A stretch of 64,000 bases of DNA from an uncultured Gammaproteobacteria bacterium (GCA_964486995.1 CAZAOV010000003.1:686-64685); one strand, 5' to 3'. Counted from the stretch's first letter, positions 10,576-62,485 are shown. Notes: a model not told the origin generated them from the letters alone. Translations and numbers: made by a program.

Positions 10576-10709
10576 CCGGGGTTATGGCTCTGGGACAGGC
10601 CAAGAGCCTTAACCCCTTTCGGGTGGTTAATTCGTGAGCATTCCACAACAAAAAAGCATAAATATATGTATAATGAGTGTGTGCGATATTGAGAGCGATA
10701 AAGCTAATT

Positions 10710-11858: not shown

Positions 11859-13203
11859 CTTGATTTTATTTTTCGGTGATGTCGTCGCGATGTATGCGGC
11901 CCTGATTTTTGCGCTGGTAATTCGTGGTCGCTGGGATGCGTTGGCCGAGGATGTGCTTACGCACGTGTCGTCGTTCACGGTTTTGTTCTTGGTTTGGCTG
12001 GTGATTCTATACATTAACGATTTTTATTCACGACGACGGTTGCGGGTGGACATGAATTTTGGTCGGTCGTTGTTTAATGCGACATTGGTCAATCTGGGCG
12101 TGGCGGTGATGTTCTTCTATCTGATTGGGCCGTCGCTCGGTATCGCGCCGAAGACCAATTTGTTTTTGGTGGTGGCGTTGTTTGTCGGGTTGTTCCTGCT
12201 TTGGCGCCGCGCCGCGTCGGGCATGATGGTGAGCGACCGCAGTCGAAAGTCGGTGCTGTTTTTGGAGCCGGATCATCTGGGCGAGACGCTCATCAACCAA
12301 ATGGCGACCGACACGGCAGTTCCGTATCGCGCCGAAGGCGTGGTGCGGGCGAGCGGTGACGCGTCCGGCGTGCCGCATACTGTTCCCGTGCATTCTGACG
12401 TACAAAAAACGCACCACATCGCCAACCAGCTCGGGGTGGAGACCGTGGTCATCGGCAACACCTCGTACACCGATTTGCACCGCCAGCTGTATCGTCTCAC
12501 GTTGAACGGTTCGACCGTGGTGGATGCGGCATCGTTTTGGGAGGAGATAAATCGAGAGATTCCGATTTTTGTTATCGATACGCCGTGGTTGGTAAACAAC
12601 TTCGGCGATATGCATAAGCGCGAGTTTGAAATTCTCAAAAGGTTCCGAGACCTGCTCGGTGCGCTTGCTATTGGCGGTGCGTTGTCGGGATTAATTGTCG
12701 TCGTAGCCGTTGCCGTGCGTTTAAGCAGTTCGGGTCCGGTGTTTTTCCGCCAGACTCGCGTGGGCAAGGACGGTCGGCATTTCACTTTGGTGAAGTTCCG
12801 CACCATGCGCGAAGACGCGGAAAAAGACGGGCCGCAGTGGTCGGTCAAAGACGATAACCGCGTGACATCAGTTGGTAAAATTTTGCGGCATACTCATCTG
12901 GACGAGATACCGCAACTTTGGAATATTATCTGCGGCGACATGTCGTTTATCGGTCCACGTCCGGAACGTCCGGTGTTTGTCGAACAGCTTGAAGAGCAGA
13001 TTCCATACTATTCGATTCGTCACTTGGTGCGCCCGGGCGTGTCCGGTTGGGCGCAGATTAATTATCGCTACGGTGCATCGGTGGAGGATTCGGCTCGAAA
13101 ACTGGCATATGACCTCTACTACATCAAACGCCGTAATCATTTGTTGGATATAAAAATTGGACTTAAGACCGCGGCCACGGTTTTCCGCGGTGAAGGCAGA
13201 TAA
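11845..13203 (+). CDS. Polyprenyl-phosphate glycosyl-1-phosphate transferase (WbaP/bacterial sugar transferase family), initiating enzyme
   Basis: FRQTRVGKDGRHFTLVKFRTMREDAEKDGPQWSVKDDNRVTSVGKILRHTHLDEIPQLWNIICGDMSFIGPRPERP is the signature C-terminal domain. N-terminal TM helices. Confidence 0.85.
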   Translation: MRARNLILFFGDVVAMYAALIFALVIRGRWDALAEDVLTHVSSFTVLFLVWLVILYINDFYSRRRLRVDMNFGRSLFNATLVNLGVAVMFFYLIGPSLGIAPKTNLFLVVALFVGLFLLWRRAASGMMVSDRSRKSVLFLEPDHLGETLINQMATDTAVPYRAEGVVRASGDASGVPHTVPVHSDVQKTHHIANQLGVETVVIGNTSYTDLHRQLYRLTLNGSTVVDAASFWEEINREIPIFVIDTPWLVNNFGDMHKREFEILKRFRDLLGALAIGGALSGLIVVVAVAVRLSSSGPVFFRQTRVGKDGRHFTLVKFRTMREDAEKDGPQWSVKDDNRVTSVGKILRHTHLDEIPQLWNIICGDMSFIGPRPERPVFVEQLEEQIPYYSIRHLVRPGVSGWAQINYRYGASVEDSARKLAYDLYYIKRRNHLLDIKIGLKTAATVFRGEGR

Positions 13204-15494: not shown

Positions 15495-15495
15495 A

Positions 15496-17742: not shown

Positions 17743-17748
17743 ATAAAT

Positions 17749-20043
17749 ATGAGCAAGAAGAAACGACGACAAAAAGCAGTGTCGAATAAGCATTGGCTGT
17801 CGTGGCTGATTTACATTTGCGCATTGCTCGCTGTAGCCACGCCCCTGCTGTCGCCGTACTGGCCGCTGATTAATTACACCCAGATTAAAACTTTCACTTT
17901 TCAGGCACTGGTCGAGATAATGTTCGTGGCTTGGGTCGTCTTGGCGGTGGCGGACAAGCGCTATCGTCCACGCCGGAACGCCTTGTCAATAACGTTGCTG
18001 CTGTTTATGGGCGCGGTGCTCGCTTCCTTACCTTTCAGCATTGATTCATCGCTGTCGTTTTGGCATATCAGCAATCGCATGACCGGAGTGGTGACTTTGC
18101 TGCATATGGCAGCTTGGTTTTTTGTTCTAGCAAATTCGCTGCATCACCGTGACGAATGGATTAAGCTGTTTAAGATAAGCGGGCTGATTTGTTACGCCAT
18201 CTTAGCGGTTGATTTGGTGGTCTGGTCGGGCAATACGCAAACTTCGGCCATGAAAAAAATATTTGGCAACTCGTTCTACATGATTTCCTATGTCATGCCG
18301 CACGTGTTTCTTGGTCTATATCTGTGGCTACGAGAAAAAACCCATAAAAAATATTTTTGGCTTTCCTTGTCTGTGGTGGCGTCGGTGGCGATTGTATTGA
18401 CGGGAAGCCGTTCTGGAATTCTGGCGTTGATAATTTCGGTGTTCATAGCCGTGCTATGCCTGACGTTGATTTCAGACAAAAGCCGGGGGAAGCGAGCGCT
18501 GATAGTGGTCTTGAGTACGGTCCTTACGCTAGCCGCGGTCGGAGGTTTTTTTGGCTTGCGCACAGAAGCCGGTCGAAATTGGGTTGCTGAAGCCAGTTAT
18601 GTCCCAGGCGCATTTCATCGCATGGCTCACCGAGATTTTGGCGGCGATCGGCTGGCGTTATGGAATATGGCGCTCAAAGGTATAGCCGAACGACCGATTT
18701 TCGGTTGGGGCAATCTGCAGTTCCTGCACGTATCTTCGAAGTATCTGGATATCGACAGCAGTGCCCTAGAGGTACTGAACGAAAGCTGGCAGGACTCCTC
18801 GCACAATCAGTATTTGGATCATTTGATGCATTACGGTGTAGTTGGTTTTACGGCGTATTTGGCGATGTGGATTGGTGTGCTGGTGTTGTTGATCCGCACG
18901 TATCGTCGTGCGGAATCGCTGAACGACAAGCGCAGCTTGCTGTTGGTCGGGGTACTGTTCGTTAATTATCTTATATATACGGTGTTTATTTTTGATACAC
19001 CACAGATGCTGATGCTGATGTTTATGATGTTTGCTTGGCTGGTGTTTATGCGAACTGGGCAGCTCCAGACCGAAGATCAGGATATTCTGGTCGGTAATCC
19101 CTCGGTAACGCTGTTCATGGTTTTGTTGATACCCATGTTGATGTTCTGCTGGTTTGCTAACGGCCAGCATTACGTCGCACAAAAACATTGGATTGCCGGA
19201 GCCGCTGCGGTAAGCGGCGGCAACTGGACTAAAGCGGCGGATGAATTTGGTCAGGCATATGGAAATACATCCAATCCGTACATATACGAGCTGCGCACTT
19301 TTGCTATGGAGCCGACCAGGAATTCCGTCGATTATTATTTTTCTGGCGGTCAGGAGAACGAAGAGGGGATTGACCTGTATCTGAAGACAATGGCTGATGC
19401 CACGACCGCCAATGTGGATGATCATCCGACTAACCCCAAAGCACTCTTCTTGGCTGGGCAGACACATCGGTATTTATACAAAGTAGACGATGCCGCCTGG
19501 CAGCAATCATATGATTACGTTCAGCGGTATCTGGAGATGGCGCCTGATAGATTTGACGCACACCTGCAGATGGCCGAGCTGAATGCCTTACGCGGCAATT
19601 ATGAAGAGGCCCACAAATGGTTCGATTCCGCTTACGAGCGACATTTTCGACTTTCAAGGCAATACGGCGGATTCATTCTGTATCGAAAAGCCTGCATCTA
19701 CGCTCGTCAGCGAAATTTTTCCGCGTTGGCCGAGACTATCTCGAAAAGCGCCAAGGTTTTTCCTGGCCATAAAGATGCGCGCTTAATTCTGATAATGGGA
19801 GAGGTGGTGCAAGAAGGTGATAACTTGAGCGGTTTTGAACCGTTCCTTGATCTTGCCATGACTCATTTTCAGCATGATGTAGAAGTGTTGACCGCTGGTG
19901 CGCGGCTGTATCATGTGCTGGGTCATAACGACATGGTTAGTCAGGTTCTCGAAGTTCCGGCCATGGTGGAATGGGGCAATTCCGAGGAAGGACGGGGACA
20001 ATATGATGCCCTAAAGAGAGAATTGGGCTACATTGAGTGGTAA
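17749..20043 (+). CDS. O-antigen ligase (Wzy_C)-TPR membrane protein (paralog 3 of 4)
   Basis: TGSRSGILALIISV; HNQYLDHLMHYGVVGFTAYLAMW; C-terminal RFDAHLQMAELNALRGNYEEAHKWF TPR-like repeat. Confidence 0.7.
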   Translation: MSKKKRRQKAVSNKHWLSWLIYICALLAVATPLLSPYWPLINYTQIKTFTFQALVEIMFVAWVVLAVADKRYRPRRNALSITLLLFMGAVLASLPFSIDSSLSFWHISNRMTGVVTLLHMAAWFFVLANSLHHRDEWIKLFKISGLICYAILAVDLVVWSGNTQTSAMKKIFGNSFYMISYVMPHVFLGLYLWLREKTHKKYFWLSLSVVASVAIVLTGSRSGILALIISVFIAVLCLTLISDKSRGKRALIVVLSTVLTLAAVGGFFGLRTEAGRNWVAEASYVPGAFHRMAHRDFGGDRLALWNMALKGIAERPIFGWGNLQFLHVSSKYLDIDSSALEVLNESWQDSSHNQYLDHLMHYGVVGFTAYLAMWIGVLVLLIRTYRRAESLNDKRSLLLVGVLFVNYLIYTVFIFDTPQMLMLMFMMFAWLVFMRTGQLQTEDQDILVGNPSVTLFMVLLIPMLMFCWFANGQHYVAQKHWIAGAAAVSGGNWTKAADEFGQAYGNTSNPYIYELRTFAMEPTRNSVDYYFSGGQENEEGIDLYLKTMADATTANVDDHPTNPKALFLAGQTHRYLYKVDDAAWQQSYDYVQRYLEMAPDRFDAHLQMAELNALRGNYEEAHKWFDSAYERHFRLSRQYGGFILYRKACIYARQRNFSALAETISKSAKVFPGHKDARLILIMGEVVQEGDNLSGFEPFLDLAMTHFQHDVEVLTAGARLYHVLGHNDMVSQVLEVPAMVEWGNSEEGRGQYDALKRELGYIEW

Positions 20044-20089
20044 GAATAACTTGTTGATGACATGCCGAAGTTATGCCGAAGCGTGTTAA

Positions 20090-22336
20090 GTGAGTACAAC
20101 TATGGTTTACGCAAATAATAAAATCGCCTCTTGGATGCTTTTGGCAGTCGTAGTCAGTATTGCTGCCATAATTGTGGCCGTGCCGTTATTGCCGGCCTGG
20201 ACTAGTTACACAACCTGTATTTTTTCCGAGGCGACTTTTTTTCAAATCGCGGTGGAGGTGATGCTGGCAGCATGGATACCGCTGGCCTTAGCCACACCAA
20301 GGTTTCGACCGCGTCGAAGTTGGCTTACCGGGGCGGTTGTATTTTACGCCGTCGTTATGATGGCATCTTTGTTTTTTGCGGTTGATCCATCTCTGTCAGC
20401 CTGGTCAAAAGTCACTCGCATGACCGGTGTCATCAATATGCTGCATATTGTTGGCTGGTTTTTGGTCTTGTCTTCCTCGCTGCGCGGCATCAGACAGTGG
20501 CGTTTTCTGCTCACTGCCAGCGTCGTTGTCAGCACCCTAATCAGCATAATCGCCATTATCGAAGGTGTGGCCGGATCAGGTCCTGTTGTGGCTACCATGT
20601 GCAACCAATCATTTTTGGCCGCTTATCTTCTGCCTCATGTGGGGATTGCAATGTTTTTGCTGTTCAGGGAGAAGCAATGGTTCTTTCGTGTAGCTCTATT
20701 GACCACCTCGACCATTCTGCATCTGATTGCGATGTATTTTTCTGCCAGTCGGTCGGGCATGCTGGCGTCACTTATTTTGGTGGCATCGTTCTTGGTGGTG
20801 TTGGTAGCTAGAACAAAGTTTAAGGCGCATAACAGGCGCTTTCTTGTCGCCCTGATTATTATTGCGTTTTGTGCGGTCATCGGGGCGGTCATCGGGCTAC
20901 GTTATTTGTCGGCCGTGGGTAAGTTGGACGCAAATCTGCCTCGACCCGTCAGCCGTCTGGTGCTGAAGGATTTTGGTGATGACCGGTTAGTTTTATGGAC
21001 ATATGCTTGGCGCGGTTTTATGGAGCGGCCCATATTCGGCTGGGGTAACGAACAGTTCAGCACGCTTTATAGCCAGCACTACAACCCGGCCGGTTTGGAT
21101 AAATACGTGTTTAATGAACGATGGCAGGATCGAGCGCATAATCAGTATCTAGATTCACTGGTGTCTTATGGAATTTTCGGGTTTTTGGCCTTTGTATTGA
21201 TTTGGGCGCTGGCCATTAAGCGGGTGCGTTCGTTGTATCGTGATGACGTGCTGGATGTTTATCAGTCATCGATGCTGATGTCGGTGTTTGTGGCGTTGAT
21301 GCTGTTTTACGCGTTCAATTTTGATACGCCGGCCGCGCTTATCGTAATTTACATGTTGTTTGCGTTCTGCGTTGGGGTCAGTCCGCCGCGCCGCGACGAT
21401 CGATTGTTCCATTCGGCTATGTTGGGTGCGGCGTTGATTACCATCAGTTTTGCCGTTGTGGGAATTAGGTTCATAAATGTGGTTCCGGCCATGAGCATGA
21501 AGACTTTCAGCGAAGCCGAGTCAACAATTTTGACCGATGGCATGAAATCGTTCGAAAAATATAGCGTGGCGCTGAAGGGTGTCGGCCCATACAGAAATGA
21601 TTTTAGGCTCAACCACCTGTTTGCCATCCAAAAATATGTCGATCACGCCGGAATGCGCGGTATGCCCCTGGAAACTCTAGTCCGTCAGGCAGTGCATGAA
21701 ACCAAAGATATGGTCGGTGATGCGCCGTACGACTATCGATCGCATTTGGCTAATGCGGTAGCTAATCGGCTAATGGCAGAGTTCGGCGAAGACACCATTC
21801 AAACCGCAAAGGTCAGCGCGCAAAAGGCTCTTGAGTTGGCGCCGACGCGATTTGACGCTCACTTTGAGTTGGGTGAGATTAGTTTAGCTGCGCGGAATTA
21901 TAGACAGTCCGAGCATCATTTTATGCGTGCCATTGAGTATTCTTATTGGAATTTGGCCGGTTTTGATGAATTGGTCTATTATCGCTTAGCTCAGCTGTAC
22001 GTTGAGCAAGGTGATTATGCTATGGCTCGGGAGTGGTTGGCACGCAGTCAGGCGGGTGCGGCATATCCGGCCACTCAAGATGCCAGACTGGTCATGGCCA
22101 TGGATAACCTGTTGGAGACGGATCAGGCCGCATCTGCATTTGCGTTCACATCTTATGTTGATGCGACATTGAATAATTTTATCGTTCATCCGGAGTTGCA
22201 CGCCGCTGCGGCAAGGTATTATGCGGCATTGGGCAACAAGAATCGTGCCGCTCAAATCGTAAATGGCATGGTCGCCACTACACCCGCTTTGGCTCGGCAG
22301 TTGGTAGAAGAATTGGACTTGCCGTTTACTGAATAA
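20090..22336 (+). CDS. O-antigen ligase (Wzy_C)-TPR membrane protein (paralog 4 of 4)
   Basis: SASRSGMLASLILV; HNQYLDSLVSYGIFGFLAFVLIW; C-terminal RFDAHFELGEISLAARNYRQSEHHF. Confidence 0.7.
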   Translation: MSTTMVYANNKIASWMLLAVVVSIAAIIVAVPLLPAWTSYTTCIFSEATFFQIAVEVMLAAWIPLALATPRFRPRRSWLTGAVVFYAVVMMASLFFAVDPSLSAWSKVTRMTGVINMLHIVGWFLVLSSSLRGIRQWRFLLTASVVVSTLISIIAIIEGVAGSGPVVATMCNQSFLAAYLLPHVGIAMFLLFREKQWFFRVALLTTSTILHLIAMYFSASRSGMLASLILVASFLVVLVARTKFKAHNRRFLVALIIIAFCAVIGAVIGLRYLSAVGKLDANLPRPVSRLVLKDFGDDRLVLWTYAWRGFMERPIFGWGNEQFSTLYSQHYNPAGLDKYVFNERWQDRAHNQYLDSLVSYGIFGFLAFVLIWALAIKRVRSLYRDDVLDVYQSSMLMSVFVALMLFYAFNFDTPAALIVIYMLFAFCVGVSPPRRDDRLFHSAMLGAALITISFAVVGIRFINVVPAMSMKTFSEAESTILTDGMKSFEKYSVALKGVGPYRNDFRLNHLFAIQKYVDHAGMRGMPLETLVRQAVHETKDMVGDAPYDYRSHLANAVANRLMAEFGEDTIQTAKVSAQKALELAPTRFDAHFELGEISLAARNYRQSEHHFMRAIEYSYWNLAGFDELVYYRLAQLYVEQGDYAMAREWLARSQAGAAYPATQDARLVMAMDNLLETDQAASAFAFTSYVDATLNNFIVHPELHAAAARYYAALGNKNRAAQIVNGMVATTPALARQLVEELDLPFTE

Positions 22337-27754: not shown

Positions 27755-27794
27755 TTATCCCCAAATAGGTCCCTGGCACCTATTTTGTGGATAA
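27755..27794. promoter_or_regulatory. 40-bp palindrome TTATCCCCAAATAGGTCCCTGGCACCTATTTTGTGGATAA with DnaA-box-like ends (right end is a perfect TGTGGATAA)
   Basis: A near-identical element lies at 62445-62485. DnaA box consensus is TTATCCACA. Confidence 0.5.
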
Positions 27795-51311: not shown

Positions 51312-51908
51312 ATGCCCATACTATTAGTTGCAACAGTATCAGCCGATTCAGCTGGCAGCGGTCTAGCAAAGGCCGCCGGCAGTCTTATTGGTTATGTACA
51401 AGCTCAGTTCATGTCTGTTAATTGGGCCTCGCCAACTTGGGACTTATTCATCGTGATGTTCTTCATACTGACCGTTTTCCTATACGGCATGTCACTCGGT
51501 CGCGATCGTATCATTGTGATTTTGGTTTCTATCTATATGGCCATGGCTGTGGTGTCGAACGCACCCATAATCGGCGGCGCCAATCCCAATCATGACGTGC
51601 AGTTCGGCAATATTTTCGCCATGAAAGTATCAGCCTTCCTAGGACTGTTTATTCTGCTGTTCTTTCTGTTGTCACGCTCCGCACTAATGAAAACTTTTGG
51701 CAACATGGCGGCCGGAAAATGGTGGCAAGTTCTGGCGTTTTCGATTTTTCATGTTGGTTTATTGATTAGCATCACGCTGTCTTTTTTGCCGGCCGAGGCG
51801 GTTGGGCAGTTGGCTCCCATCACTCGAAACTTGTTCGCCTCGGATATCGCAAAGTTCGTGTGGGTGGTAGCGCCGATAACCGGCATGATTTTTTTGAAGG
51901 GTGATTGA
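51312..51908 (+). CDS. Hypothetical integral membrane protein
   Basis: Five hydrophobic segments. Terminator agagc-gtcag-gctct+TTTTGTTT at 51944-51968. Confidence 0.45.
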   Translation: MPILLVATVSADSAGSGLAKAAGSLIGYVQAQFMSVNWASPTWDLFIVMFFILTVFLYGMSLGRDRIIVILVSIYMAMAVVSNAPIIGGANPNHDVQFGNIFAMKVSAFLGLFILLFFLLSRSALMKTFGNMAAGKWWQVLAFSIFHVGLLISITLSFLPAEAVGQLAPITRNLFASDIAKFVWVVAPITGMIFLKGD

Positions 51909-52095: not shown

Positions 52096-52818
52096 CTATT
52101 CCGCAGTATCCGGTTCCGGAATCTCATCTACCGGTTGAATATCATCCGGCGGTGGCTCTGGCAGCGGAATGTCACCTGGTGGCGTCGGAGGATTAAATGG
52201 CGCGTCCTCTATCCCTATTTCAGCTGACAGCGATATTTCGGTTGCGTCAAACGAGCTGTTTTCTCGGATATTGACATCCGTTGTGACATTCACAGTCGAG
52301 CCTATTTTCAGGTCTGATAATGACAGCTCTTCTTCCTCGAAGATTTCAGGTGGCTCCGGTGGCGTGCCGTCACTTTCCGGATCGAAGTTCGAAATAGCTT
52401 CATCGAATGCTCGAAAAGCTGCGTTTAACTCTTCCGGATCCTTCGGTGTCTGTTGAACAATCGTGACATCAGACGGGATACTGACACGAAAAGTTCTGGC
52501 GTCCTCAATCGGTGACAAGGCGGCGCTGATTTCGATATAGCCAGATCCGACTTCCGTAATCTCGCCCTCAACGTAATAAACAGTTGAATTAGGATCGAAC
52601 TCCGGCGGCAGGTATCCGGAATTCAGTAGGCGCTGTAAGACCTCGGAGTCTGAACAGTCCGCGCCCCCAGAAATAATGTTTTTTCCAGGGAGTACGCCCT
52701 TTCCGCTACCGACCGTATAGCCAATCAGGAACGATGCGGCAATCAGTATTACCCCAATTAATATCGCCAACACCAGCGTCATCTTACCGCGTGGCGGGCT
52801 TGTTGTGTCTCCATTCAT
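52096..52818 (-). CDS. Hypothetical membrane-anchored acidic Pro/Glu/Asp-rich protein
   Basis: N-terminal TM (LVLAILIGVILIAASFLIGY). C-terminal PEPP/PPTPP low-complexity region. Bidirectional terminator aaatcacctcg-ttgc-cgaggtgattt at 52058-52090. Confidence 0.5.
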   Translation of the reverse strand: MNGDTTSPPRGKMTLVLAILIGVILIAASFLIGYTVGSGKGVLPGKNIISGGADCSDSEVLQRLLNSGYLPPEFDPNSTVYYVEGEITEVGSGYIEISAALSPIEDARTFRVSIPSDVTIVQQTPKDPEELNAAFRAFDEAISNFDPESDGTPPEPPEIFEEEELSLSDLKIGSTVNVTTDVNIRENSSFDATEISLSAEIGIEDAPFNPPTPPGDIPLPEPPPDDIQPVDEIPEPDTAE

Positions 52819-52954
52819 ATAATTTTTTAAAGAATGTTTTAGTTGATTCTATTACATTATAATCCCTTATCGTATGGTTAGTCATTGGTCGTTGTGGATA
52901 AGGAATAATATAAGAAGACAAAATGTGGTAAAATCGAGACAGATTCATTCGATT

Positions 52955-54334
52955 ATGCCAGCAAAGAAAAAGGCATCGAGTAAGCCAGCCACGAAGCGAG
53001 CCGTCAAGAAATCGATTACAGCTCGTTCCGCCAAAGTCGCGCCCAAGAAACGGGCGACGCCTTCTTCTGGTGCCTCAAAGAAGAAAATGACGAGTAAAGC
53101 CAAGACAAGAAAAACCGCGGCCCAGAAGACGGCCAAGAATACAACCACGAAAAAAATCACCAAGAAAACTGCTGAGGTGAAGACCGCTACTGTACCGGTT
53201 AAACATAAACCTCGATACGAGTATGCGCTGGCGTTTATTTTGACGCTCAGCGCAATTTTGTTGATTGGCTATACGGCTCGGATAGTAACCGCCGCGGAAT
53301 TCGCAGAACCGCCAGGCGGTCCGTCTGAAGGCAATATTCCGGTTACGGTTTGGAATCGTGACGCTACGGTCATTGGCAGTGAGGGTGGTATTTGGCCAGA
53401 GAAGCAACAGGACACTTCTATTAACATCGACGGACAAATATATTTTGGCGATGTATCGCTTCAGCTGGCCAATGATGGGGTGCCTCAATACGGACTGTAT
53501 GGACAGATTCATTACTACGATGGTTTGACCGGCATTACTTACATGGGCTCGGAAGATTATTTTATCAAGATGGATGCGACTCATACTAATTATCCTGGGG
53601 CTGGAGACACTAGCAACTACTCACGTTTTTACGTCAACCGTGGCGGGACGCTATATGGTGCCGGCGGCGGTTCCATCGGTAGTTATTTTGTGGTTGGTAG
53701 CTCCAACAAACAAATGCTTGAAAACGGTTCTTCGACTTATATCTATCAAGGCCTAGCCAGATTTGATGAGACAAGTCCCGGCGGAGACTATTATGCCGAC
53801 CCGGACTTAGACTATTTTTTGTGGATGAAGTCGTATGACTATACCGGTAGTCCGGATGTGGGTTATACTGACCGATTTACCGTAGATGTAACCGGAGACG
53901 TTTGGGCCAGCGAAGACATCAAAGCCGACGGCTGCTTCGGTCCAAGTTTTATCGGTCTAACCGTCACCGGCGGACAGGGCGGTGGCGTGTTTCGTCCTCA
54001 AGATGTAGCTGGGTATTACGGGGGCAACAATCGTTGCCAAGTTGATTATCCCGATTACGAAGGCACACATGTTTGTCAGATTTCAGAGCTGCTCGAAAGC
54101 ATCAAGTGTTCCGAACCCGGTGACGCATTTCGTAGCGTACTTGATGGGACTCGAGCTTGGGTAAACGGCGGTCCCCCAGGACATATTTCTAATTACAACG
54201 ATTGTGAAGGCTGGTCCAGTTCGTCCGCGGACAGCTATGCTCGCTATTGGATTTTTGACACGATTACCGGCGGGCGCGGAACAGGGGTTTCTTGTAATAC
54301 CGTAAACGGACTCCAGTTCGCCTGCTGTTACTAG
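52955..54334 (+). CDS. Hypothetical membrane protein with Lys-rich (histone H1-like) cytoplasmic N-terminal tail, one TM helix, and a Gly/Tyr/Asp-rich extracellular domain with a C-terminal Cys cluster
   Basis: MPAKKKASSKPATKRAVKK...KKITKKTAEVK, then the TM helix ALAFILTLSAILLIGY. The track ORF starts at 52874; MPAKKK at 52955 is preferred. Confidence 0.5.
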   Translation: MPAKKKASSKPATKRAVKKSITARSAKVAPKKRATPSSGASKKKMTSKAKTRKTAAQKTAKNTTTKKITKKTAEVKTATVPVKHKPRYEYALAFILTLSAILLIGYTARIVTAAEFAEPPGGPSEGNIPVTVWNRDATVIGSEGGIWPEKQQDTSINIDGQIYFGDVSLQLANDGVPQYGLYGQIHYYDGLTGITYMGSEDYFIKMDATHTNYPGAGDTSNYSRFYVNRGGTLYGAGGGSIGSYFVVGSSNKQMLENGSSTYIYQGLARFDETSPGGDYYADPDLDYFLWMKSYDYTGSPDVGYTDRFTVDVTGDVWASEDIKADGCFGPSFIGLTVTGGQGGGVFRPQDVAGYYGGNNRCQVDYPDYEGTHVCQISELLESIKCSEPGDAFRSVLDGTRAWVNGGPPGHISNYNDCEGWSSSSADSYARYWIFDTITGGRGTGVSCNTVNGLQFACCY

Positions 54335-54584: not shown

Positions 54585-54604
54585 TGTGGATAATTTGATA
54601 TAAT
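54585..54604 (+). promoter_or_regulatory. DnaA box (TGTGGATAA) immediately upstream of an extended -10 promoter element (TGATATAAT), about 60 nt before the 2573-aa surface-protein gene
   Basis: A perfect 9-mer match to the reverse complement of TTATCCACA at 54585-54593. TG-n-TATAAT at 54596-54604. Confidence 0.4.
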
Positions 54605-54664
54605 ATAAAGGTAGATAAGTTGCTAGATGTGACCGGCATTTAGCACAGTTTAACCCCCGCAACC

Positions 54665-57600
54665 ATGAAGTACGCTGTATCCACCCGAACACATTGGGCG
54701 ATGCTTATTGTGCTGACGGTTGTTTTTGTATTTGTTTCATTTTTTACCTCAGTCGATTTGGTTCGCGCAGTAACGTATTGCCCCTATGACAGCACACAAG
54801 CGACCTGCGAATGTCCCACGTCCGGTCCTGGGGTGACCTGTATTGAGCCGCAGCTCTACGCCCAGGGTTCTTGCTACAACGATGTCCGGCCGTGCGCTTC
54901 GAATCAGCGCATGAATTGCGATACCGGCAGTTGCGTCTGTAACACGCCCGATTATCCGTGTTCCGGCTGTACCGCGGCTCAGACCACAGTGGGCGCGATT
55001 TGCGATCACCGTTCGACCGACGCTGGCGATTGTGCCGACAGCTCTGAATACACTAGCCAGTGCGGAGCATGGACTTGCCCTGCAGGTACGACTCTGTGTA
55101 ATTCTCCGGCCCCCGGGGTATGTGTACCCAACCGCACCTGTCCGCCGGGTATGACTTGGGACGTTTGTAGTGACACTTGCTCAACGTACTACGTTTTGAC
55201 CAATCCAACCCCAGAGGTTTCGCCACAGCCGGCCAACCCAGAAATCGAAGGTAATTTCACCGTGTTTGGTGACGATGCCGGAGAGGGTGATATCTACATG
55301 TCCAACGGCAAGGCATTGCGCGTGGACGGAACCGGTTCCACCACTCTGAATATCGGCAACTGGGGCGGCGGCGGCTTTTCGTTCGAGGCCTTTGGCTCAC
55401 TCAAGGCCGACGATATCACGACTGACACCGGCAACATTGATTCTACGACCGGCACTCTAAATCTTGGAGGCGGCGCATCTTCTAGCGGATGTACGGTTAC
55501 CACCGCTGGAGACTACAGCTGCAGCGGTGATTTTGTCGAAGCCGGTGCGCCACTATCGAACAAGTATTTGGCGTATGACAGTTACGTGCAGAGCAACAAC
55601 CCCTTCAGCCCCAAAGGAAAATTTTTCATCCCGGAAATTAATAACGGATTCTTTCGTGGTGAATCTAGATTTGCCGTAAATCATACTGGATTCGATCATT
55701 TCTGCTCGACCAATTATCTTTTTGATAACAATTATGAAAGTGGGTGCATCATCGGCACTGGCGGTGGACCTGCCGTAGTTACTATTGATTTGACGGCAAA
55801 AACTGAGTTTTCACCGACTTCAGGTATTGTCTATCCTCAAGGCTATATTTACTTCAACATAAATTATACATTTGGCATTCAGAGTGTTAGCGGTCGGATG
55901 TTTTGGTCGCACCCGTCTAATGGCACGTCTGGTTGGGTAACTCTGTCCGCAGAAGATGTTAGTGCAGCCAGTCAGTTACAACAGTGGAGGATGACTGTTC
56001 CGGCAGTTGTGAATTACGTCAAAAAATTTGAATTTACCATCGAAGCACTCCCCACTGCACCCAGTCCACCCAATCCGCAGCATAACGGCTGGATAACCGA
56101 GATTGAATACTTTCAGACGCGTCCAGCTGGCGCTGCTCCGTCGCTTTTTACAAAATACAAGGAAAATAGGACCTATTCGAATTTTTATTTAAATGATGCT
56201 GCCAATTCCCCGGTAGTGACGTTGGACACCTCAGGAAACATCGATGCGGAGGGAGATATTGGAGTGGGTGATGCGCTGTGCCTGCGCGGCGATTGTATCA
56301 CCGATTGGATGGATGGTTTTACGCCAGGCAGCTCTAGCGGTGATACGTTGCGCTGGAACGGCACCGATTGGATTGCGAGTTCCAATCTGACAAATACGGG
56401 TACGCGGGTTGGCATAGGCACGGATACCCCGGCGGGCGCGTTGGATGTTCATCCTGGAGGTGCGCAAACTGCTGGCGACTTGGTGGTCGATACTACCGGC
56501 AAGACAGTATACGTCGGTCGCATTAGCACCACGGGGGGCGACAACAGCAATTTCGTGTTTAGAGATCGGCTGGGCAACGCCAGATTTACGCTGTCCCCTG
56601 GCATGCATCGCTGGAATCCGGAAGTCGGACACATTATGCTGATGCCGTCATCTTCCTATGGTGTTGCGGTTGGTGCGGCAAATGCCGGTACAGCCAAACT
56701 ATATGTAAACGGCAGTCTCGGCGTTAATACCAGCAGTCCGGCATATGATGTCGACATTGACGGAGACGTACGTATCACGGGGCAGTTGATAGTTGAAGGT
56801 GGCGGCGTAATTGGCGGCAGTGGCACGGCTAATACCATACCCAAATTTACCGCCGGTTCGATAATTGGTAATTCTGCCATTACAGAATCTGGCGGAAACG
56901 TTGGTATCGGAGACGTATCCCCAGCCACCATCCTGGATTTGAATAATACCTATGGAGATCCCGGAACAGTTCCAAATAAAATCGCACTGTGGTATGGCGG
57001 AGCCAATAACTATATGGGTTTCGGTGTGAGTGGTGGTGATTTAGATTATTTCTCTCAGGGGAATCATCGTTTCTATACTCAGTACAATGGCACACCCGGC
57101 ACTGAAAAGATGGTGATTGCGGACAACGGTAACGTTGGTATCGGCACATCTAGTCCCGTGCTCAAACTTCAGGTCACGGGTGATATACAGGCCAGTGATG
57201 GAATAGGTTTTGGTGGTCTGTCCCCGGGATATGTTTTAGGCGGGAGGCCGTTTAGCATGGCTGGCCGGAGTCCGCAAGAAGATGCTGGTGCCGCCGTTTT
57301 GTTCGGTAGCGGTGCATACGGACCAAACTATATCGAATTGATGCGGCAAAGTTACGGGATTTTAAGCAATAGCCACATCTACACCACTGCCAATATCTAT
57401 TCGTATGGACATACATACTTAGGCGACGCAGCCACTGATACCGTTTTTTGGCGAAGTGCTAATAGTTACATATATAACGATCACAATTTCCGTGACGCTG
57501 TGACCGGCAGTACGATGTTGTATCTGGACAATGATACGCAATATGTTGGAGTCAATACCACTACGCCGACTCGAACCCTGTCGGTTGCTGGAGATATCGC

Positions 57601-60600
57601 GGTTGGCAGCAACCAATACATAACTGAGTATGGCGCTAGTCTCCGTGTCGGGAACCCCTCGGGATACGTGAGCATTACCCCGCAAAATACTAGCTATGCG
57701 CATTTTTACACTGATAGACCTAAATTCATTTTTAATAAGCCGATAGATGTTATCGGCGGTCGTTACGGCTCCTATACCGGTAACGTAATTTTAAGTGCTG
57801 GGAGCATTCGGGATGATTTGGTCATCGATAATGCTACCGGTGTCACCACCATCAATAATGGCTTGCGTCTGCCGACCGGTGCGGTGGCCGGTCATGCCCT
57901 AGTGTCAGACGCCAGCGGTAACGCTACTTGGCAGGCGTTGAGTGGAATTGGCGGCGGAGGTACACAGAATTACTTGCCGAAGTTTTCGGCGGCGACCACA
58001 TTAGCTGATTCCCAAGTTTATGATAACGGCTCAAATGTTGGTATCGGTACAGCCACCCCCGAGTATAAATTGGACGTTAATGGAGACATCGTTAATCGCG
58101 GCCGACTCTATCAATATACTCAGCTTGGCTCGTCAAACGCAGCACACGGCATCAGCTGGTATCAACCGAGTTACGTGACTTGGATTGACTACATGGCCGC
58201 ACCTGGTACGGTCAACGCACCAAATGGCACGCCGGCACCGGCCGATTCAGATAACGGCGTCACTCATTGGGCGCGTCGATTTAACATCGAAAATCAGGCG
58301 AACTTCGGCTGGGTGTTCGAATCCGGCACAAACAACGCCACACAGCCGAGCGTCAAGCTGTCCATTAACGCCGCTTCTGGAAACTTACATACAGTCGGCT
58401 CCGGTTATTTTGACGATAATGTCGGCGTGGGAACTACGACTCCTAGCGCACCATTGCATGTAGCATCAGCAGATTCGGCAAATCCGGGCATCCAGGTAGG
58501 TGACGGCAGTACCGGTCGAATTCAGATTGGCGTAAACGGCTGGTTTGATGATGGGACATATTTCAGCCCGATTGGCGGCAGATCACTCTATGTACGCTCA
58601 ACTACTCCGGCTACTTACATTTATTCTCCCAATATCTTTCTTGGTTCTACTACCGGTCAGTACGTTCGTGTACGTGACAATCAGTTGTTTGGCGACGATT
58701 GGGTAATCAATAATGGTTTCGGTGGCAATTGGGGGATCGGCACCATCACCCCGGCGTACACCCTAGATGTCAATGGGACCGTTCGTGTTACTGACTCGCT
58801 GATAATCGACGGCAGTAACGCCATTACCGACCCAGACGACACCAAGAACACCATGCTTGGCTATAATGCCGGTCAGAACATCACTACTGGCTGGGGTGTT
58901 ACATTGATTGGTGAATACGCCGGTGCCGAACACACGACCGCTTATGCCAACACATTCGTTGGTTATCAGTCCGGCGAATCGGTGTCGGGTGTGGGAAATG
59001 CAACTTCGAACGTGGTCATGGGTTTTCGCGCTGGTCGATGGCTTACGGGATCAGAAAATACTCTAATCGGTACCGAAGCTGGAGCCGGATATAACGCAGG
59101 AAGTTGTTGCGATTATGTTGGCGGAGAGAATTCTGGCTCAGAGAATACCTTTGTCGGTATTTTTGCTGGAAATCGCAACTCCACCGGCAGCTATAATGTT
59201 GGCCTGGGTAAGCATGCCGGGTACTACAATACCGTCGGTAACCTAAATACCTATCTTGGTTATCAAGCCGGCCTGTATCACCAGGGGAGTCAGAACATCA
59301 TTATCGGCGGGGATGCCGGGGCGCAAACGAGCGGCGATTCCAGTACCGGGAATAACCTAATCTTGATTGGCTACGGAATTCAGCCACGCACCACTGCCGT
59401 CAGCGATTATTTGAACATTGGCGACACTTTGTATGGTGATTTGGCTGCCGGACGAATTGGTATCGGGACAGCTGCTCCTGCCAGGGCGCTTGACTTAAGC
59501 AGTTCTGGCCAAATAACTTTCGGTAACAACGTGACCTTGGATTCGACCGCCGGTATTTATTGGTACAGCGGTTCTGATTACGGCATCTATCGCGGTGCCG
59601 GTGCTTGGTCGAGCCCTGACTATCGGCAACTGTACATGAAGTGGTCCACGGGCCTGGTTTTAGACGGAGGTAGCGCATACGGCAAGAGTGGCACCACTAT
59701 TCAGCCTGGCGCTGGAAATGTTGGTATTGGTACTTATCCCTCGGCGTATAAGTTAGATGTTAATGGTCAGGTAAACGGTACCGAGCTGTGTATCGCCGGT
59801 GACTGTCGTAGCGTTTGGCCCGGTGCCGGTGCGACGAGCGGATCTGGTGTGCAGTATGGCACGACGGTTTGGTCGGGCGGCAGCACCTTGACTTCGGTTG
59901 GCACCGGACAGCCCGGACAGCTGTATATTTCCAAAGGGGCTTCCGCATATCCAGAATTTGTCACGATGAGCGGTGATGCGACCATTTCTTCGACCGGTGT
60001 AGTGACTGTTGCAAACGGTTCACATACGCATAGTGCCGCTAATATCACATCAGGAATATTGGCGGTAGCCCGCGGTGGAACCGGCAGCAGCACCCTGAGC
60101 AATCTCATCACCCTTGGCACGCATACGACCGGCAATTACGTTAACGATATAACCGCTGGCACCGGAATTACGGTCAGTGGAGTGGCCGGCGAAGGCTGGA
60201 GTCCGACCCTTGCGGTGGACGAGGGTGCATTAACCCTCGGTAACATCGGCGGCTCGCTGTCATTGGGAACTAAGACCAGTGGAGACTACGTTGCGTCACT
60301 GATTGCCGGTAGTGGGGTAACCATAACTGGCGGGACGGGTGAAGGTTCCACCCCCACCATCAGCGTGAGCGGTGGCGCAGTGCCAAGCGGACCGGCCGGC
60401 GGAGACTTAAACGGCAACTATCCTAATCCGCAGGTTGATAACAATTCACATACGCACATTTCCAGCAATATTACCGGCTCTGCGGCTGGGCAGTTTATGG
60501 TTTCAAATTCATCAAATGTTCCTACATGGGTAAGTATGAGTGGTGACGCTTCGATGAATTCCGCTGGGAGTGTAACCGTGAGTAACAACTCACACGTCCA

Positions 60601-62386
60601 TACATTGGGGTCATACACCACCGGTGATTATGTCGAGGGCTTGGTTGCCGGCTCCGGAATTAGCATTACTGGAAGCGGTGGTGAGGGTTCGCTTCCGGTC
60701 ATTACTGCCACTGGTGCCCCGCCGTCCGGTAGCGCTGGCGGTGATTTGAGTGGCAGTTATCCTAACCCACAAGTTAATAATAATTCCCACTACCACGTGG
60801 ACTCAAATATCTACGGAGGTGCCAGCGGTCAGGTGCTGATTGCCGACAATAGCGGATACGGTGATTGGAGAACCGTGGGCGGGGACGCGAGCATCAACTA
60901 TGTGGGTACATTGACCATCAATTCCAATGCTGTGGACTTAGGCGGAAACACTACCGGAGACTATGTTAAAGGTCTGCAGGCCGGCTCCGGCATCAGCATC
61001 AGCGGCAGCGGCGGCGAAGGCTCCAGTCCGATTATTAGCTCTACAATCAGTAGTCCGTGGTCGGTCAGCGGTTCAAATGTATATCGTAGTTCTGGCATGG
61101 TCGGAATACTGGACTCTTCACCGAGCTATCCGCTCGACGTCAATGGCATCATCCGTTCAACTAGCAGCATCTACGGAAACTACGGTTCATTCACCACTGG
61201 CTTGTCAGCCGGTACCGAATCATTATTCCTGGTCACCGATTCAAGTGGCCGGGTGGACGTCAATGGCACGTTTTGTATCAATAGTTCTTGTCGCACTACC
61301 TGGCCGTCTGCATCCAGCCCCTGGACCACCAGCGGCAGCAATGTCTATCGATCTTCCGGTAATGTCGGCATAGGCACGTCCGCGCCGTCGTATAATCTGG
61401 ACGTCTCCGGCACCGGACGTTTTACCGGAACAGTCTCGACCGGAGGTGCGAGCGTCTCTTCCTCTTACGGTATCCGCGCGCAGGGTTCAACGATGGGCGG
61501 TTACTTTAACGATACGGACGGTACTTATGTGTATATCGGTTACGGCACCAGTGGAATCTACACGCCCGGCGGAGCGTATTTTGGAGGTCCAGTCGGAATC
61601 AATACCTCGTCTCCAGTCGGTGATTTCCAGGTCATCGGTGACGCGAACGTAAGCGGCAGTCTGTTCGGAAATTTTGTATATGGCAACAGCGCCTCGTTTT
61701 CGGGAACCGTGGAAGGCGACGATTTCTTCTCGCCTGGCAACGCCGCCTTCGGCGGAGCGACAGCCAGCACCAGCTATGGGCTAAAGGCGCAGGGTTCTAC
61801 TATGGGCGGATGGTTTTATGACGAGGGCGGAACGTCAAGAACTTATCTGGCTTACGGTGGTTATGGGGTATATGTTTCGACAGGTAGTGCCGCAAAACCA
61901 GGTGGCGGCAGCTGGACATCTACCTCTGATAGGCGAACCAAGAAGGATATCAGTTCTTTTAACGGGGGGCTAGATCTTGTCGATCAGCTTAATCCCGTCA
62001 ATTACACATATAACGGCTTGGCCGAAACACCGGAGGGATTGGAAGGCATAGGGTTCATCGCACAAGATATCATGGATGTGACTCCGTGGATGGTGGAAAG
62101 CAACTCGATAAAGCTTCATCCGGAAGATGAAGAAGAAAGTGACGTATATTATGTTAATCCCAGTTCCCTGCCTTTCATAAATTTGAATGCTATCAAGGAT
62201 TTGAAGGCGCTGATTGATGATGAGAATGCCGAGTTGGCCTCTTTCAAGATTGACACCGATGGTCGTATGGTTGAGGTGGAAGCGGCGGTGCGGAAGTTGG
62301 AGGAAGAAAATGTAGAGTTAAAAGCTAAGACCGAAGAATTGGAACAGCGATTACAGCAGCTTGAATGGCAGATGTTGAGCAACTAG
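54665..62386 (+). CDS. 2573-aa secreted/surface fibre protein: signal/TM, an N-terminal Cys-rich module of about 150 aa, a long Gly/Thr/Ser-rich beta-helix-like region with phage tail-fibre-type repeats, then a C-terminal Peptidase_S74 (endosialidase-type intramolecular chaperone) domain and a coiled-coil tail
   Basis: N-terminus MKYAVSTRTHWAMLIVLTVVFVFVSFF. About 30 Cys in residues 40-190. Recurrent GNVGIGT..P...LDVNG units (at least 7 copies). Three C(I/L).GDC(R/I)(S/T).W motifs. Recurrent NNSH.H and GDYV..L.AGSGI.I.G units. C-terminal TSDRRTKKDISSFNGGLDLVDQLNPVNYTYNG...GIGFIAQDIMDVTPWMV matches the S74 autoproteolytic chaperone signature (S-D-R-x-K...Y.Y...G.IAQE). Confidence 0.8.
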   Translation: MKYAVSTRTHWAMLIVLTVVFVFVSFFTSVDLVRAVTYCPYDSTQATCECPTSGPGVTCIEPQLYAQGSCYNDVRPCASNQRMNCDTGSCVCNTPDYPCSGCTAAQTTVGAICDHRSTDAGDCADSSEYTSQCGAWTCPAGTTLCNSPAPGVCVPNRTCPPGMTWDVCSDTCSTYYVLTNPTPEVSPQPANPEIEGNFTVFGDDAGEGDIYMSNGKALRVDGTGSTTLNIGNWGGGGFSFEAFGSLKADDITTDTGNIDSTTGTLNLGGGASSSGCTVTTAGDYSCSGDFVEAGAPLSNKYLAYDSYVQSNNPFSPKGKFFIPEINNGFFRGESRFAVNHTGFDHFCSTNYLFDNNYESGCIIGTGGGPAVVTIDLTAKTEFSPTSGIVYPQGYIYFNINYTFGIQSVSGRMFWSHPSNGTSGWVTLSAEDVSAASQLQQWRMTVPAVVNYVKKFEFTIEALPTAPSPPNPQHNGWITEIEYFQTRPAGAAPSLFTKYKENRTYSNFYLNDAANSPVVTLDTSGNIDAEGDIGVGDALCLRGDCITDWMDGFTPGSSSGDTLRWNGTDWIASSNLTNTGTRVGIGTDTPAGALDVHPGGAQTAGDLVVDTTGKTVYVGRISTTGGDNSNFVFRDRLGNARFTLSPGMHRWNPEVGHIMLMPSSSYGVAVGAANAGTAKLYVNGSLGVNTSSPAYDVDIDGDVRITGQLIVEGGGVIGGSGTANTIPKFTAGSIIGNSAITESGGNVGIGDVSPATILDLNNTYGDPGTVPNKIALWYGGANNYMGFGVSGGDLDYFSQGNHRFYTQYNGTPGTEKMVIADNGNVGIGTSSPVLKLQVTGDIQASDGIGFGGLSPGYVLGGRPFSMAGRSPQEDAGAAVLFGSGAYGPNYIELMRQSYGILSNSHIYTTANIYSYGHTYLGDAATDTVFWRSANSYIYNDHNFRDAVTGSTMLYLDNDTQYVGVNTTTPTRTLSVAGDIAVGSNQYITEYGASLRVGNPSGYVSITPQNTSYAHFYTDRPKFIFNKPIDVIGGRYGSYTGNVILSAGSIRDDLVIDNATGVTTINNGLRLPTGAVAGHALVSDASGNATWQALSGIGGGGTQNYLPKFSAATTLADSQVYDNGSNVGIGTATPEYKLDVNGDIVNRGRLYQYTQLGSSNAAHGISWYQPSYVTWIDYMAAPGTVNAPNGTPAPADSDNGVTHWARRFNIENQANFGWVFESGTNNATQPSVKLSINAASGNLHTVGSGYFDDNVGVGTTTPSAPLHVASADSANPGIQVGDGSTGRIQIGVNGWFDDGTYFSPIGGRSLYVRSTTPATYIYSPNIFLGSTTGQYVRVRDNQLFGDDWVINNGFGGNWGIGTITPAYTLDVNGTVRVTDSLIIDGSNAITDPDDTKNTMLGYNAGQNITTGWGVTLIGEYAGAEHTTAYANTFVGYQSGESVSGVGNATSNVVMGFRAGRWLTGSENTLIGTEAGAGYNAGSCCDYVGGENSGSENTFVGIFAGNRNSTGSYNVGLGKHAGYYNTVGNLNTYLGYQAGLYHQGSQNIIIGGDAGAQTSGDSSTGNNLILIGYGIQPRTTAVSDYLNIGDTLYGDLAAGRIGIGTAAPARALDLSSSGQITFGNNVTLDSTAGIYWYSGSDYGIYRGAGAWSSPDYRQLYMKWSTGLVLDGGSAYGKSGTTIQPGAGNVGIGTYPSAYKLDVNGQVNGTELCIAGDCRSVWPGAGATSGSGVQYGTTVWSGGSTLTSVGTGQPGQLYISKGASAYPEFVTMSGDATISSTGVVTVANGSHTHSAANITSGILAVARGGTGSSTLSNLITLGTHTTGNYVNDITAGTGITVSGVAGEGWSPTLAVDEGALTLGNIGGSLSLGTKTSGDYVASLIAGSGVTITGGTGEGSTPTISVSGGAVPSGPAGGDLNGNYPNPQVDNNSHTHISSNITGSAAGQFMVSNSSNVPTWVSMSGDASMNSAGSVTVSNNSHVHTLGSYTTGDYVEGLVAGSGISITGSGGEGSLPVITATGAPPSGSAGGDLSGSYPNPQVNNNSHYHVDSNIYGGASGQVLIADNSGYGDWRTVGGDASINYVGTLTINSNAVDLGGNTTGDYVKGLQAGSGISISGSGGEGSSPIISSTISSPWSVSGSNVYRSSGMVGILDSSPSYPLDVNGIIRSTSSIYGNYGSFTTGLSAGTESLFLVTDSSGRVDVNGTFCINSSCRTTWPSASSPWTTSGSNVYRSSGNVGIGTSAPSYNLDVSGTGRFTGTVSTGGASVSSSYGIRAQGSTMGGYFNDTDGTYVYIGYGTSGIYTPGGAYFGGPVGINTSSPVGDFQVIGDANVSGSLFGNFVYGNSASFSGTVEGDDFFSPGNAAFGGATASTSYGLKAQGSTMGGWFYDEGGTSRTYLAYGGYGVYVSTGSAAKPGGGSWTSTSDRRTKKDISSFNGGLDLVDQLNPVNYTYNGLAETPEGLEGIGFIAQDIMDVTPWMVESNSIKLHPEDEEESDVYYVNPSSLPFINLNAIKDLKALIDDENAELASFKIDTDGRMVEVEAAVRKLEEENVELKAKTEELEQRLQQLEWQMLSN

Positions 62387-62444
62387 GATTTAGCTGCATA
62401 ATATATAGAAGACCCGTCGGGAAACCGGCGGGCTTTTTGAATTA

Positions 62445-62485
62445 TTATCCACAGAATAGGTGCCTGGCACCTATTCTGTGGATAA
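62445..62485. promoter_or_regulatory. 41-bp perfect palindrome TTATCCACAGAATAGGTGCCTGGCACCTATTCTGTGGATAA: two perfect inverted DnaA boxes flanking a 23-bp core. Second member of the family seen at 27755-27794.
   Basis: Read directly from the sequence. It lies between the terminator of the surface-protein gene (62411-62440) and cysS. Confidence 0.6.

Follow-up and report, generated by a model that had tools for sequence, protein, structure and literature searches.

We analysed a giant gene in a 64,000-nucleotide stretch of DNA (GCA_964486995.1, CAZAOV010000003.1:686-64685; the whole stretch is called the window below). It probably encodes a surface fibre that an uncultured, ultrasmall Patescibacterium exports and that is very probably a homotrimer. 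The fibre appears to follow the building principle of the mosaic adhesive trimer (MAT) fibres of Bdellovibrio and of the receptor-binding fibres of phages. The gene is one open reading frame (ORF) at 54665-62386 on the plus strand, comprising 2573 amino acids (aa) and a stop codon, and the protein is identical to NCBI protein P0001, encoded on an 81.5-kb contig. From its N-terminus, the protein consists of a Sec-type signal peptide, a module with 20 Cys residues, a CBM32/discoidin-like β-sandwich, ~1700 aa of fibre repeats and a Peptidase_S74 chaperone. Sequence inspection and Pfam thereby bear out the three-part architecture of an initial annotation of this DNA (signal and Cys module, repeat middle, S74 end). 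The start coordinate given there, 54585, belongs to an upstream 9-mer, and the ATG lies at 54665. The parts of the gene are as follows.

54665..62386, + strand: giant fibre gene, single ORF of 2573 aa
54665..54769, + strand: predicted Sec-type signal peptide, aa 1-35, cleavage between VRA and VTY (by inspection and from the A-x-A sites of relatives)
54770..55474, + strand: Ncys, the 20-Cys module plus a GKAIRVD...LNxGNWG segment, aa 36-270; best-conserved and family-defining part by orthologue identity
55538..56233, + strand: D2, aa 292-523, β-sandwich of galactose-binding-like fold (F5/8 type C, CBM32-like), confident core aa ~321-491
56234..61303, + strand: fibre shaft, aa 524-2213, diverged repeats with GNVGIGTxxPxxKLDVxG loops, C-x4-C-x3-W motifs and a Gly/Asn-rich short-repeat block (aa ~1380-1560)
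59900..61270, + strand: shaft sub-region of four ~113-aa units, aa ~1746-2200, with GDLxGxYPNPQV-NNSHxH motifs (HxH triplets), mutual identity 41-54%
61304..61924, + strand: distal tip region, aa 2214-2420, predicted to be laid bare by cleavage; overlaps the match to PHROG tail-fibre family 1980
61925..62383, + strand: Peptidase_S74 chaperone and C-terminal coiled coil, aa 2421-2573; Ser2421 codon 61925-61927, Lys2426 codon 61940-61942

S74 chaperone and fibre architecture

The C-terminus was searched for Peptidase_S74 (PF13884), the family suggested by the initial annotation, and a significant Pfam match was obtained over aa 2421-2474 (E = 9.7e-11; 42.2 bits, cut-off 22). PHROG tail-fibre families 1980 and 5481 also matched the C-terminal part (aa 2249-2530). 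The catalytic motif SDRRTK (S2421...K2426) is of the SDxxxK type. When the last 444 aa of the giant protein were aligned with 31 database relatives, S2421, D2422 and K2426 made up three of only four invariant columns among the 32 sequences. An AlphaFold2 model of aa 2130-2573 was confident in the chaperone and coiled coil, with a predicted local distance difference test score (pLDDT) of ~90 or above over most of this part and helices at aa ~2499-2526 and 2536-2572. Foldseek matched the confident part at a probability of 1.0 to MyRF (7dc3), the K1F endosialidase (3gw6) and phi29 gp12 (3gud). Threshold, Ser-Lys dyad and fold thus all identify an S74 domain. The domain had already been flagged by automated annotation, and its principle is known from Bdellovibrio.

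In the Bdellovibrio fibre Bd3182, A781 is the last residue of the mature chain and S782 is catalytic (PMC10769870). The giant protein is expected, by analogy, to be cut between T2420 and S2421, that is, ahead of Ser2421, and not after this Ser as had been stated initially.

We then searched all PDB sequences with a profile of the C-terminal alignment. Matches were found to MyRF (7dc3, E = 1.3e-24), to Bd2133 (8ond, 8.8e-24) and Bd3182 (8ojn, 1.4e-15), and to the phage tail-fibre chains 6f45 (6e-21) and 8jov (8e-19), while Bd1334 (8oml), Bd2439 (8ol4) and 8on4 gave weaker yet significant matches. These relatives surfaced only with the profile; the whole giant protein searched against PDB sequences as a single sequence gave no match. 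By profile, the closest characterised relatives are the cellular MAT fibres of Bdellovibrio and eukaryotic MyRF, as much as phage proteins. The ICA domain of MyRF was both the best profile match and the best fold match of the chaperone, including the preceding VGIxTxxP loop. MyRF, a membrane-bound transcription factor of eukaryotes that lacks a fibre, shows that S74 domains work in cellular proteins.

The MAT fibres of Bdellovibrio bacteriovorus, which serve in prey recognition, carry a signal peptide, are displayed on the cell surface, are trimeric and β-helical, and have a conserved N-terminal domain (Caulton et al. 2024, PMC10769870). They contain a V-G-G/N-π-x-x-P-x-x-x-L capping loop and end in a self-cleaving S74 chaperone or in other tip domains; one of them binds glycans of a prey species (PMC10769870). 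All 21 MATs share the N-terminal domain, which is β-rich and ~130 aa long, and Bd3182, a member of the S74 subgroup with 922 aa, is ~55 nm long (PMC10769870). The giant protein and its relatives resemble the MATs in being chromosomal, cellular and signal-peptide-bearing, in having a conserved N-terminus and a diversified C-terminus, in the repeated V-G-x-G-x-x-x-P-x-x-x-L loop of the shaft, and in ending either in an S74 domain with SDxxxK or in a non-S74 domain. The loop is one residue longer here than in the published consensus, and the GNVGIGTxxPxxKLxV loops of the query align with GNLGLGTAAPTSALHV, GLVGINTAAPLQKLHV and GNVGIGATAPTAKLEV of Bd2133.

There are also differences. The N-module has 20 Cys residues, spans ~235 aa and lacks known relatives, whereas the MAT domain is β-rich and ~130 aa long; as the N-module is Cys-rich and has no Pfam or PDB match, its identity with the MAT N-terminal domain looks unlikely. 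The giant protein is ~2.5 times the length of a typical MAT (~1000 aa), and its host phylum, which is probably monoderm-like, is not that of Bdellovibrio. A possible further difference is that its family occupies one fixed dnaJ-cysS locus with a conserved membrane-anchored partner. Patescibacteria are absent from the supplementary list of MAT-like proteins in other organisms (PMC10769870), and full-text literature searches found no paper on such fibres in Patescibacteria.

Export was judged by inspection. The N-terminus (MKYAVSTRTHWAMLIVLTVVFVFVSFFTSVDLVRA followed by VTYC...) has K2 and R8, a hydrophobic stretch at aa 11-27 and a V-R-A35 site before V36, and so shows the n-, h- and c-regions of exported proteins such as those of the MAT superfamily. 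Of 45 family members inspected, nearly all have an A-x-A-type site at the first Cys or a short way ahead of it. In the giant protein, 20 Cys residues lie within aa 39-172.

Behind the Cys module, the D2 core (aa ~321-491) has a galactose-binding-like β-sandwich fold. This likeness is confined to the fold, as D2 had no Pfam match at E ≤ 1 to place it in CBM32 or F5/8 type C, and a PDB profile search returned nothing significant. Such modules are known from glycosidases, but here the module is part of a fibre.

The body of the protein is rich in Gly, Ser and Thr. A pattern count recovered the repeat motifs listed in the initial annotation: NVGIGT..P-type loops (7-10, depending on the strictness of the pattern), C-x4-C-x3-W three times (aa 539, 1709 and 2204) and N[NG]SHxH four times (aa 1784, 1926, 1974 and 2039). 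PHROG 28023 matched aa 2008-2044. Tiled self-comparison revealed numerous old and diverged internal repeats, among them the ~113-aa units at aa ~1746-2200, with 52-54% mutual identity. At the DNA level, the repeats are only 65-76% identical, and none are arrayed in tandem. On these grounds, we ruled out that near-identical DNA repeats drive phase variation or cassette recombination. A YadA-type trimeric autotransporter was likewise not indicated, since no such Pfam family matched the protein and its C-terminus is an S74 domain.

The long shaft might instead serve as a stalk that delivers an antagonistic or enzymatic activity, in the manner of a contact-dependent toxin or of a tailspike of the depolymerase type. 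The first descriptions of S74 chaperones concerned endosialidases and further tailspike enzymes, and the chaperone here matches the endosialidase structure 3gw6. A CBM32-like fold usually goes with glycoside hydrolases, and the protein is very long, with aa 1379-2213 (~800 aa) absent from the closest orthologue, P0002. However, Pfam, NCBIfam, PHROG and single-sequence PDB searches detected no catalytic or toxin domain in the giant protein (the NCBIfam search yielded nothing useful at all), and the unshared middle consists of fibre-type repeats. We consider a delivery stalk decidedly unlikely.

A cellular gene at a conserved chromosomal locus

The gene order around the giant gene is hrcA-grpE-dnaK-dnaJ, two small membrane proteins, a Lys-tailed membrane protein (the partner), the giant gene and cysS. 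The partner has the following layout, read from its translation and from synteny.

52955..54334, + strand: partner, with a Lys-rich cytoplasmic tail, one transmembrane (TM) helix, a PPGGxxxGNIPVTxWN segment and a C-terminal Cys-rich domain, CFGP...HVC...NDCxGW...FACC[YKR]

We found the same order in related genomes: hrcA-grpE-dnaK-(DUF3467)-dnaJ, a ~195-aa membrane protein, a ~240-aa minus-strand protein, the partner, one or more fibre genes and cysS. This dnaJ...cysS fibre slot recurs in eight other contigs or assemblies (L001, L002, L013, L014, L015, L016, L018 and L019). Another contig, L003, has a related S74 fibre immediately 5' of cysS. Downstream of cysS, where the contig reaches that far, corA, a VirD4-like gene and dnaX usually follow. 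Each of the ten contigs, including the window, has a partner homologue directly 5' of its first fibre gene, so the search for orthologues and for synteny with the Lys-tailed neighbour that the initial annotation had proposed gave a positive answer. This synteny is the decisive evidence for a cellular gene.

The genes of the locus have diverged to different extents. In the two closest genomes, identity is 88-89% for DnaK, 74-82% for CysS, 40-64% for the partner and 41-49% for the shared parts of the fibre. The tip and the S74 domain together are 41% identical to P0002.

We weighed these data against the view that the giant protein is a phage or prophage tail fibre, or else a remnant or tailocin fibre, that happens to be encoded in the chromosome and becomes part of a phage-like particle. 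The shaft contains HxH and YPNP motifs, as phage fibres typically do. The S74 chaperone and the matches to PHROGs 1980 and 5481 over the C-terminal ~300 aa point the same way, and NCBI names orthologue P0002 a 'tail fiber domain-containing protein'. Phage fibres and spikes (3gw6, 3gud, 6f45 and 8jov) share with the giant protein the S74 fold, the Ser-Lys dyad, HxH and NVGIGT-type motifs and the PHROG tail-fibre matches at aa 2249-2530; they differ from it in that the giant protein has a signal peptide, no phage neighbours and vertical inheritance.

The evidence against a phage fibre comes from several sides. No phage gene was present among the ~30 larger ORFs scanned in the 64-kb window; the remaining genes are those of glycosyltransferases, a Mur ligase, four tandem Wzy_C/TPR proteins, FtsEX, purine biosynthesis and tRNAs. 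The dnaJ-cysS slot is the same in the window and the eight other contigs, although their housekeeping proteins have diverged to ~60-88% identity. The protein carries an N-terminal Sec-type signal peptide, which is at odds with virion assembly in the cytoplasm, and it is not encoded among phage structural genes. Base composition along the gene is no different from that of the flanks. Known phage genomes share with the giant protein only the ~120-aa S74 domain, at ~32% identity, and scans of IMG/VR found no relative of the N-module (pattern scan) or of the C-terminal 444 aa. The first ~520 aa (Cys module and CBM32-like domain) had no PHROG match; PHROGs matched only further along.

A prophage origin was ruled out by the signal peptide, the shared chromosomal slot and the absence of phage genes from the scanned part of the window. 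For the same reasons, a phage or tailocin fibre in general is very unlikely, to the point of being nearly negligible. The cellular, non-prophage location proposed initially thus agrees with the window scan and the conserved synteny. The accompanying view of a domesticated fibre needs correction, as the protein is no one-off captured from a phage: it belongs to a cellular family, inherited vertically, in which at least 70 clusters share the Cys-rich N-module. We would rather call it the counterpart, in Patescibacteria, of the cellular fibres of MAT type.

The Ncys family, its partner and the proposed function

To delimit this family, we ran an exhaustive HMMER search of aa 30-520 against 1.84 billion cluster representatives and retrieved 119 proteins. 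The Cys-rich module was present in 70 of them, always at the N-terminus (median start aa 40), in proteins of 189-2573 aa (median 849), among which the giant protein is the longest. A word-indexed protein search with the N-module alignment had returned only three short proteins, and pattern scans of GTDB species genomes, IMG/VR and JGI metagenome contigs yielded no relatives of the N-module. In the two closest orthologues, the module is 76% and 60% identical to that of the giant protein, and all 20 Cys residues are invariant. Outside the module, the fibre is only 41-49% identical or replaced, while DnaK is 88% identical.

The opposite ends of the family members are mosaic. Thirteen of the 70 clusters end in S74 with SDxxxK, and 19 end in a Cys-rich CFGP...HVC...NDCxGW...FACC[KRY] domain homologous to the C-terminus of the upstream partner; the rest have other ends, for example P0126, P0130 and P0003. 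As in the MATs, one end is thus conserved and the other mosaic across the 70 clusters that share the N-module. The Ncys family is an undescribed, vertically inherited family of cellular proteins comprising at least 70 clusters.

The syntenic orthologue P0003 (L002 10001-16126) has neither SDxxxK nor a Pfam S74 match. At aa ~1800-2041 it carries a different domain of ~200 aa (…TFTGSHPAW…GDFLISSSTAGHARLD…), and it retains the terminal coiled coil (…QLEWQLLGR; the window protein has …QLEWQMLSN). This end may be an alternative, undescribed C-terminal chaperone or tip.

Modules are also exchanged between the fibre and its partner. The partner's C-domain had no Pfam or PDB sequence relatives. In L003, a partner-type anchor (basic tail, TM helix and GNIPVTIWN) is fused to an S74 fibre, and in L004 and L013 (P0136), the secreted Cys module is fused to the neighbour-type C-domain. 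These fusions are evidence, of the Rosetta-stone type, for a joint function of neighbour and fibre; that the partner is the dock for the secreted fibre is speculation. The number of fibre genes per slot ranges from one to at least four, depending on the genome: L013 has two in tandem, L018 has two, one of them encoding 2585 aa, and L019 has four genes with Ncys or S74, among which lies a single 208-aa ORF that lacks fibre modules. The locus thus acts as a 'fibre island' that shuffles two types of anchor and several distal ends.

The 2585-aa protein of L018 (12172-19929, on a 1.5-Mb metagenomic contig) is a second giant with the Cys-rich N-module, encoded immediately 5' of cysS. It has a weak YadA_head match and a further Cys-rich C-terminal domain of the HVCTxxE…CC type. 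Giant size thus arose more than once in this slot, with different ends.

We propose that the protein would be exported by the Sec route, with the signal peptide removed after Ala35. The S74 domains of three chains would then associate and nucleate folding of an intertwined β-helical shaft. The Ser2421/Lys2426 dyad would cut just before Ser2421, freeing the 153-aa chaperone and baring the tip (aa ~2214-2420). The 20-Cys module would stay at the cell surface as the retention end and may bind the membrane-anchored upstream protein, the CBM32-like domain near the base would offer a glycan-binding site, and the variable distal part would contact another cell. Trimerisation, autocleavage and surface retention are proposed here by analogy with the characterised fibres, and scaling from Bd3182 gives, as a rough extrapolation, a fibre ~150-200 nm long. 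We infer adhesion to a host or partner cell, which makes the locus a good candidate for attachment to other cells.

Several points weigh against this proposal. Trimerisation, cleavage and surface display are deduced from homology, and the N-module, the proposed retention end, matches nothing in Pfam or among PDB sequences. Domain searches found no receptor-binding domain of known specificity at the distal end. In the monomer model of aa 2130-2573, the shaft and tip scored pLDDT < 50; such a poor model of the fibre preceding the chaperone is expected when an intertwined trimer is modelled as a single chain. The name Patescibacteria comes from NCBI names of relatives, two of the encoded proteins being listed under 'Patescibacteria group bacterium'. 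With the label so understood, a surface fibre of a Patescibacterium is a reasonable reading.

A further objection is that an S-layer-like or purely structural role would give identical sequence signals. The protein might be a component of the envelope, an S-layer-associated or glycocalyx-organising fibre whose main role is architecture or protection and not recognition. It is encoded by a core gene at a fixed locus beside conserved membrane proteins, in a window rich in envelope-glycan genes (glycosyltransferases and the four tandem Wzy_C/TPR proteins), and the proximal CBM32-like domain could bind the cell's own glycan. The best PDB match of the N-module was the S-layer protein Sap, though this match was weak and not significant (E = 0.47). 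On the other hand, the characterised homologues, MAT and phage fibres, are adhesins, and swapping of ends, tandem paralogues and a length range of 189-2573 aa are typical of receptor-binding proteins, although S-layer proteins evolve fast too. A structural role is rather unlikely, and we continue to favour a surface fibre that contacts other cells.

A broader idea can be put forward only tentatively, and we regard it as doubtful: the dnaJ-cysS fibre island might be the host-recognition locus of the lineage, a cellular counterpart of the phage receptor-binding module. It would combine interchangeable anchors (the secreted 20-Cys module, or the basic tail, TM helix and GNIPVTxWN) with at least five kinds of distal end, including S74 and CFGP...FACC. 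The partner would act as the dock, and swapping the tip or changing the length (up to the extrapolated 150-200 nm) would reset the choice of host cell to which the epibiont can attach.

How ultrasmall Patescibacteria find and bind their hosts is described as largely obscure in the abstract of PMC12206443, and work so far has mainly dealt with type IV pili and a few Saccharibacteria adhesins (PMC10633639). The locus offers an attachment candidate that is recognisable from sequence, sits at an easily located site and varies in its ends and copy number between genomes. If this attachment reading is right, host range could be read from the fibre island by comparative genomics, and the MAT principle would no longer be confined to predatory Proteobacteria but would reach the candidate phyla radiation. 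Two undescribed domains, the 20-Cys N-module and CFGP...FACC, could then be placed in a functional setting. Besides the phylum and the exceptional length, the new elements are these two domains and a fibre island that is fixed in place while its ends are combinatorial.

Regulatory motifs and neighbouring genes

The following elements flank the giant gene and its partner, as read from the sequence.

54585..54593, + strand: 9-mer TGTGGATAA, the reverse complement of the DnaA-box consensus TTATCCACA, 5' of the giant gene
54596..54604, + strand: extended -10 box, TGaTATAAT
52893..52934, + strand: partner promoter region, with TGTGGATAA at 52893-52901 (kept in 7/7 loci checked) and an extended -10 box, TGgTAAAAT, at 52926-52934
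62413..62432, + strand: GC-rich terminator-like hairpin followed by a T-run, 3' of the giant gene

The initial annotation had described the promoter of the giant gene as a DnaA box with an extended -10 element. Both elements are present, but they are not special to this gene. The 9-mer occurs six times in the window compared with 0.6 expected, a ten-fold enrichment, at 27786, 29325, 52893, 54585, 62445 and 62477, 5' of plus-strand genes. It lies 62-69 nt 5' of the partner's annotated ATG in six of the seven loci and 159 nt 5' of it in L013, and three loci also have it 5' of the ~195-aa gene. Sites in other contigs are L001:8238; L002:6421 and 8365; L013:5686 and 7163; L014:6837; L015:2307 and 3825; and L016:6481. 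The 9-mer is thus a regulatory motif found repeatedly at promoters of this lineage, be it bound by DnaA or by another factor.

At most inspected sites, the 9-mer is followed at 5-32 nt by an extended -10 box (TGnTAnnnT), with no recognisable -35 element. As this distance varies, a role of the 9-mer as a fixed -35-like element was rejected. The arrangement suggests that the lineage uses extended -10 promoters which have a factor site in common further upstream. The fibre genes of most other genomes have no 9-mer of their own and lie close behind the partner, which suggests co-transcription.

Between the giant gene's terminator and cysS lies a perfect 41-nt palindrome (62445-62485; TTATCCACAGAATAGGTGCC-T-GGCACCTATTCTGTGGATAA), composed of two inverted TGTGGATAA boxes around a AATAGGTGCCWGGCACCTATT core. 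It looks like a putative operator of some regulator. A similar half-site (ATAGGTcCCTGGCACCTATTtTGTGGATAA) is found 5' of a DUF362 gene (~27757-27794).

Two small membrane proteins are kept between dnaJ and the partner in every locus examined, and both may belong to the same surface system.

51312..51908, + strand: 198-aa multi-pass membrane protein, conserved locus member, 65-83% identical in six orthologous loci, no Pfam family
52096..52818, - strand: 240-aa protein with one TM helix and an acidic/Pro-rich tail, conserved locus member, 26-51% identical in orthologous loci, no Pfam family

On the far side of cysS, one to three genes 3' of it, a VirD4/TraG-like coupling-protein gene (DUF8128, DUF87, TrwB) was present in all six loci that reach so far: L001 21111-23648, L002 20044-22599, L013 14886-17387, L014 13975-16485, L015 11655-14150 and L016 13566-16109. 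The window stops short of the corresponding region. In this lineage, a type IV secretion component is thus encoded close to the fibre island.

Elsewhere in the window, four tandem paralogues of 748-764 aa (13209-22336) have both an O-antigen-ligase-like Wzy_C domain and, C-terminally, TPR repeats. Their genes come immediately 3' of a cluster of sugar-transferase and glycosyltransferase genes (10677-13203) and, judged by these domains, probably form an expanded surface-glycan polymerase or ligase array.

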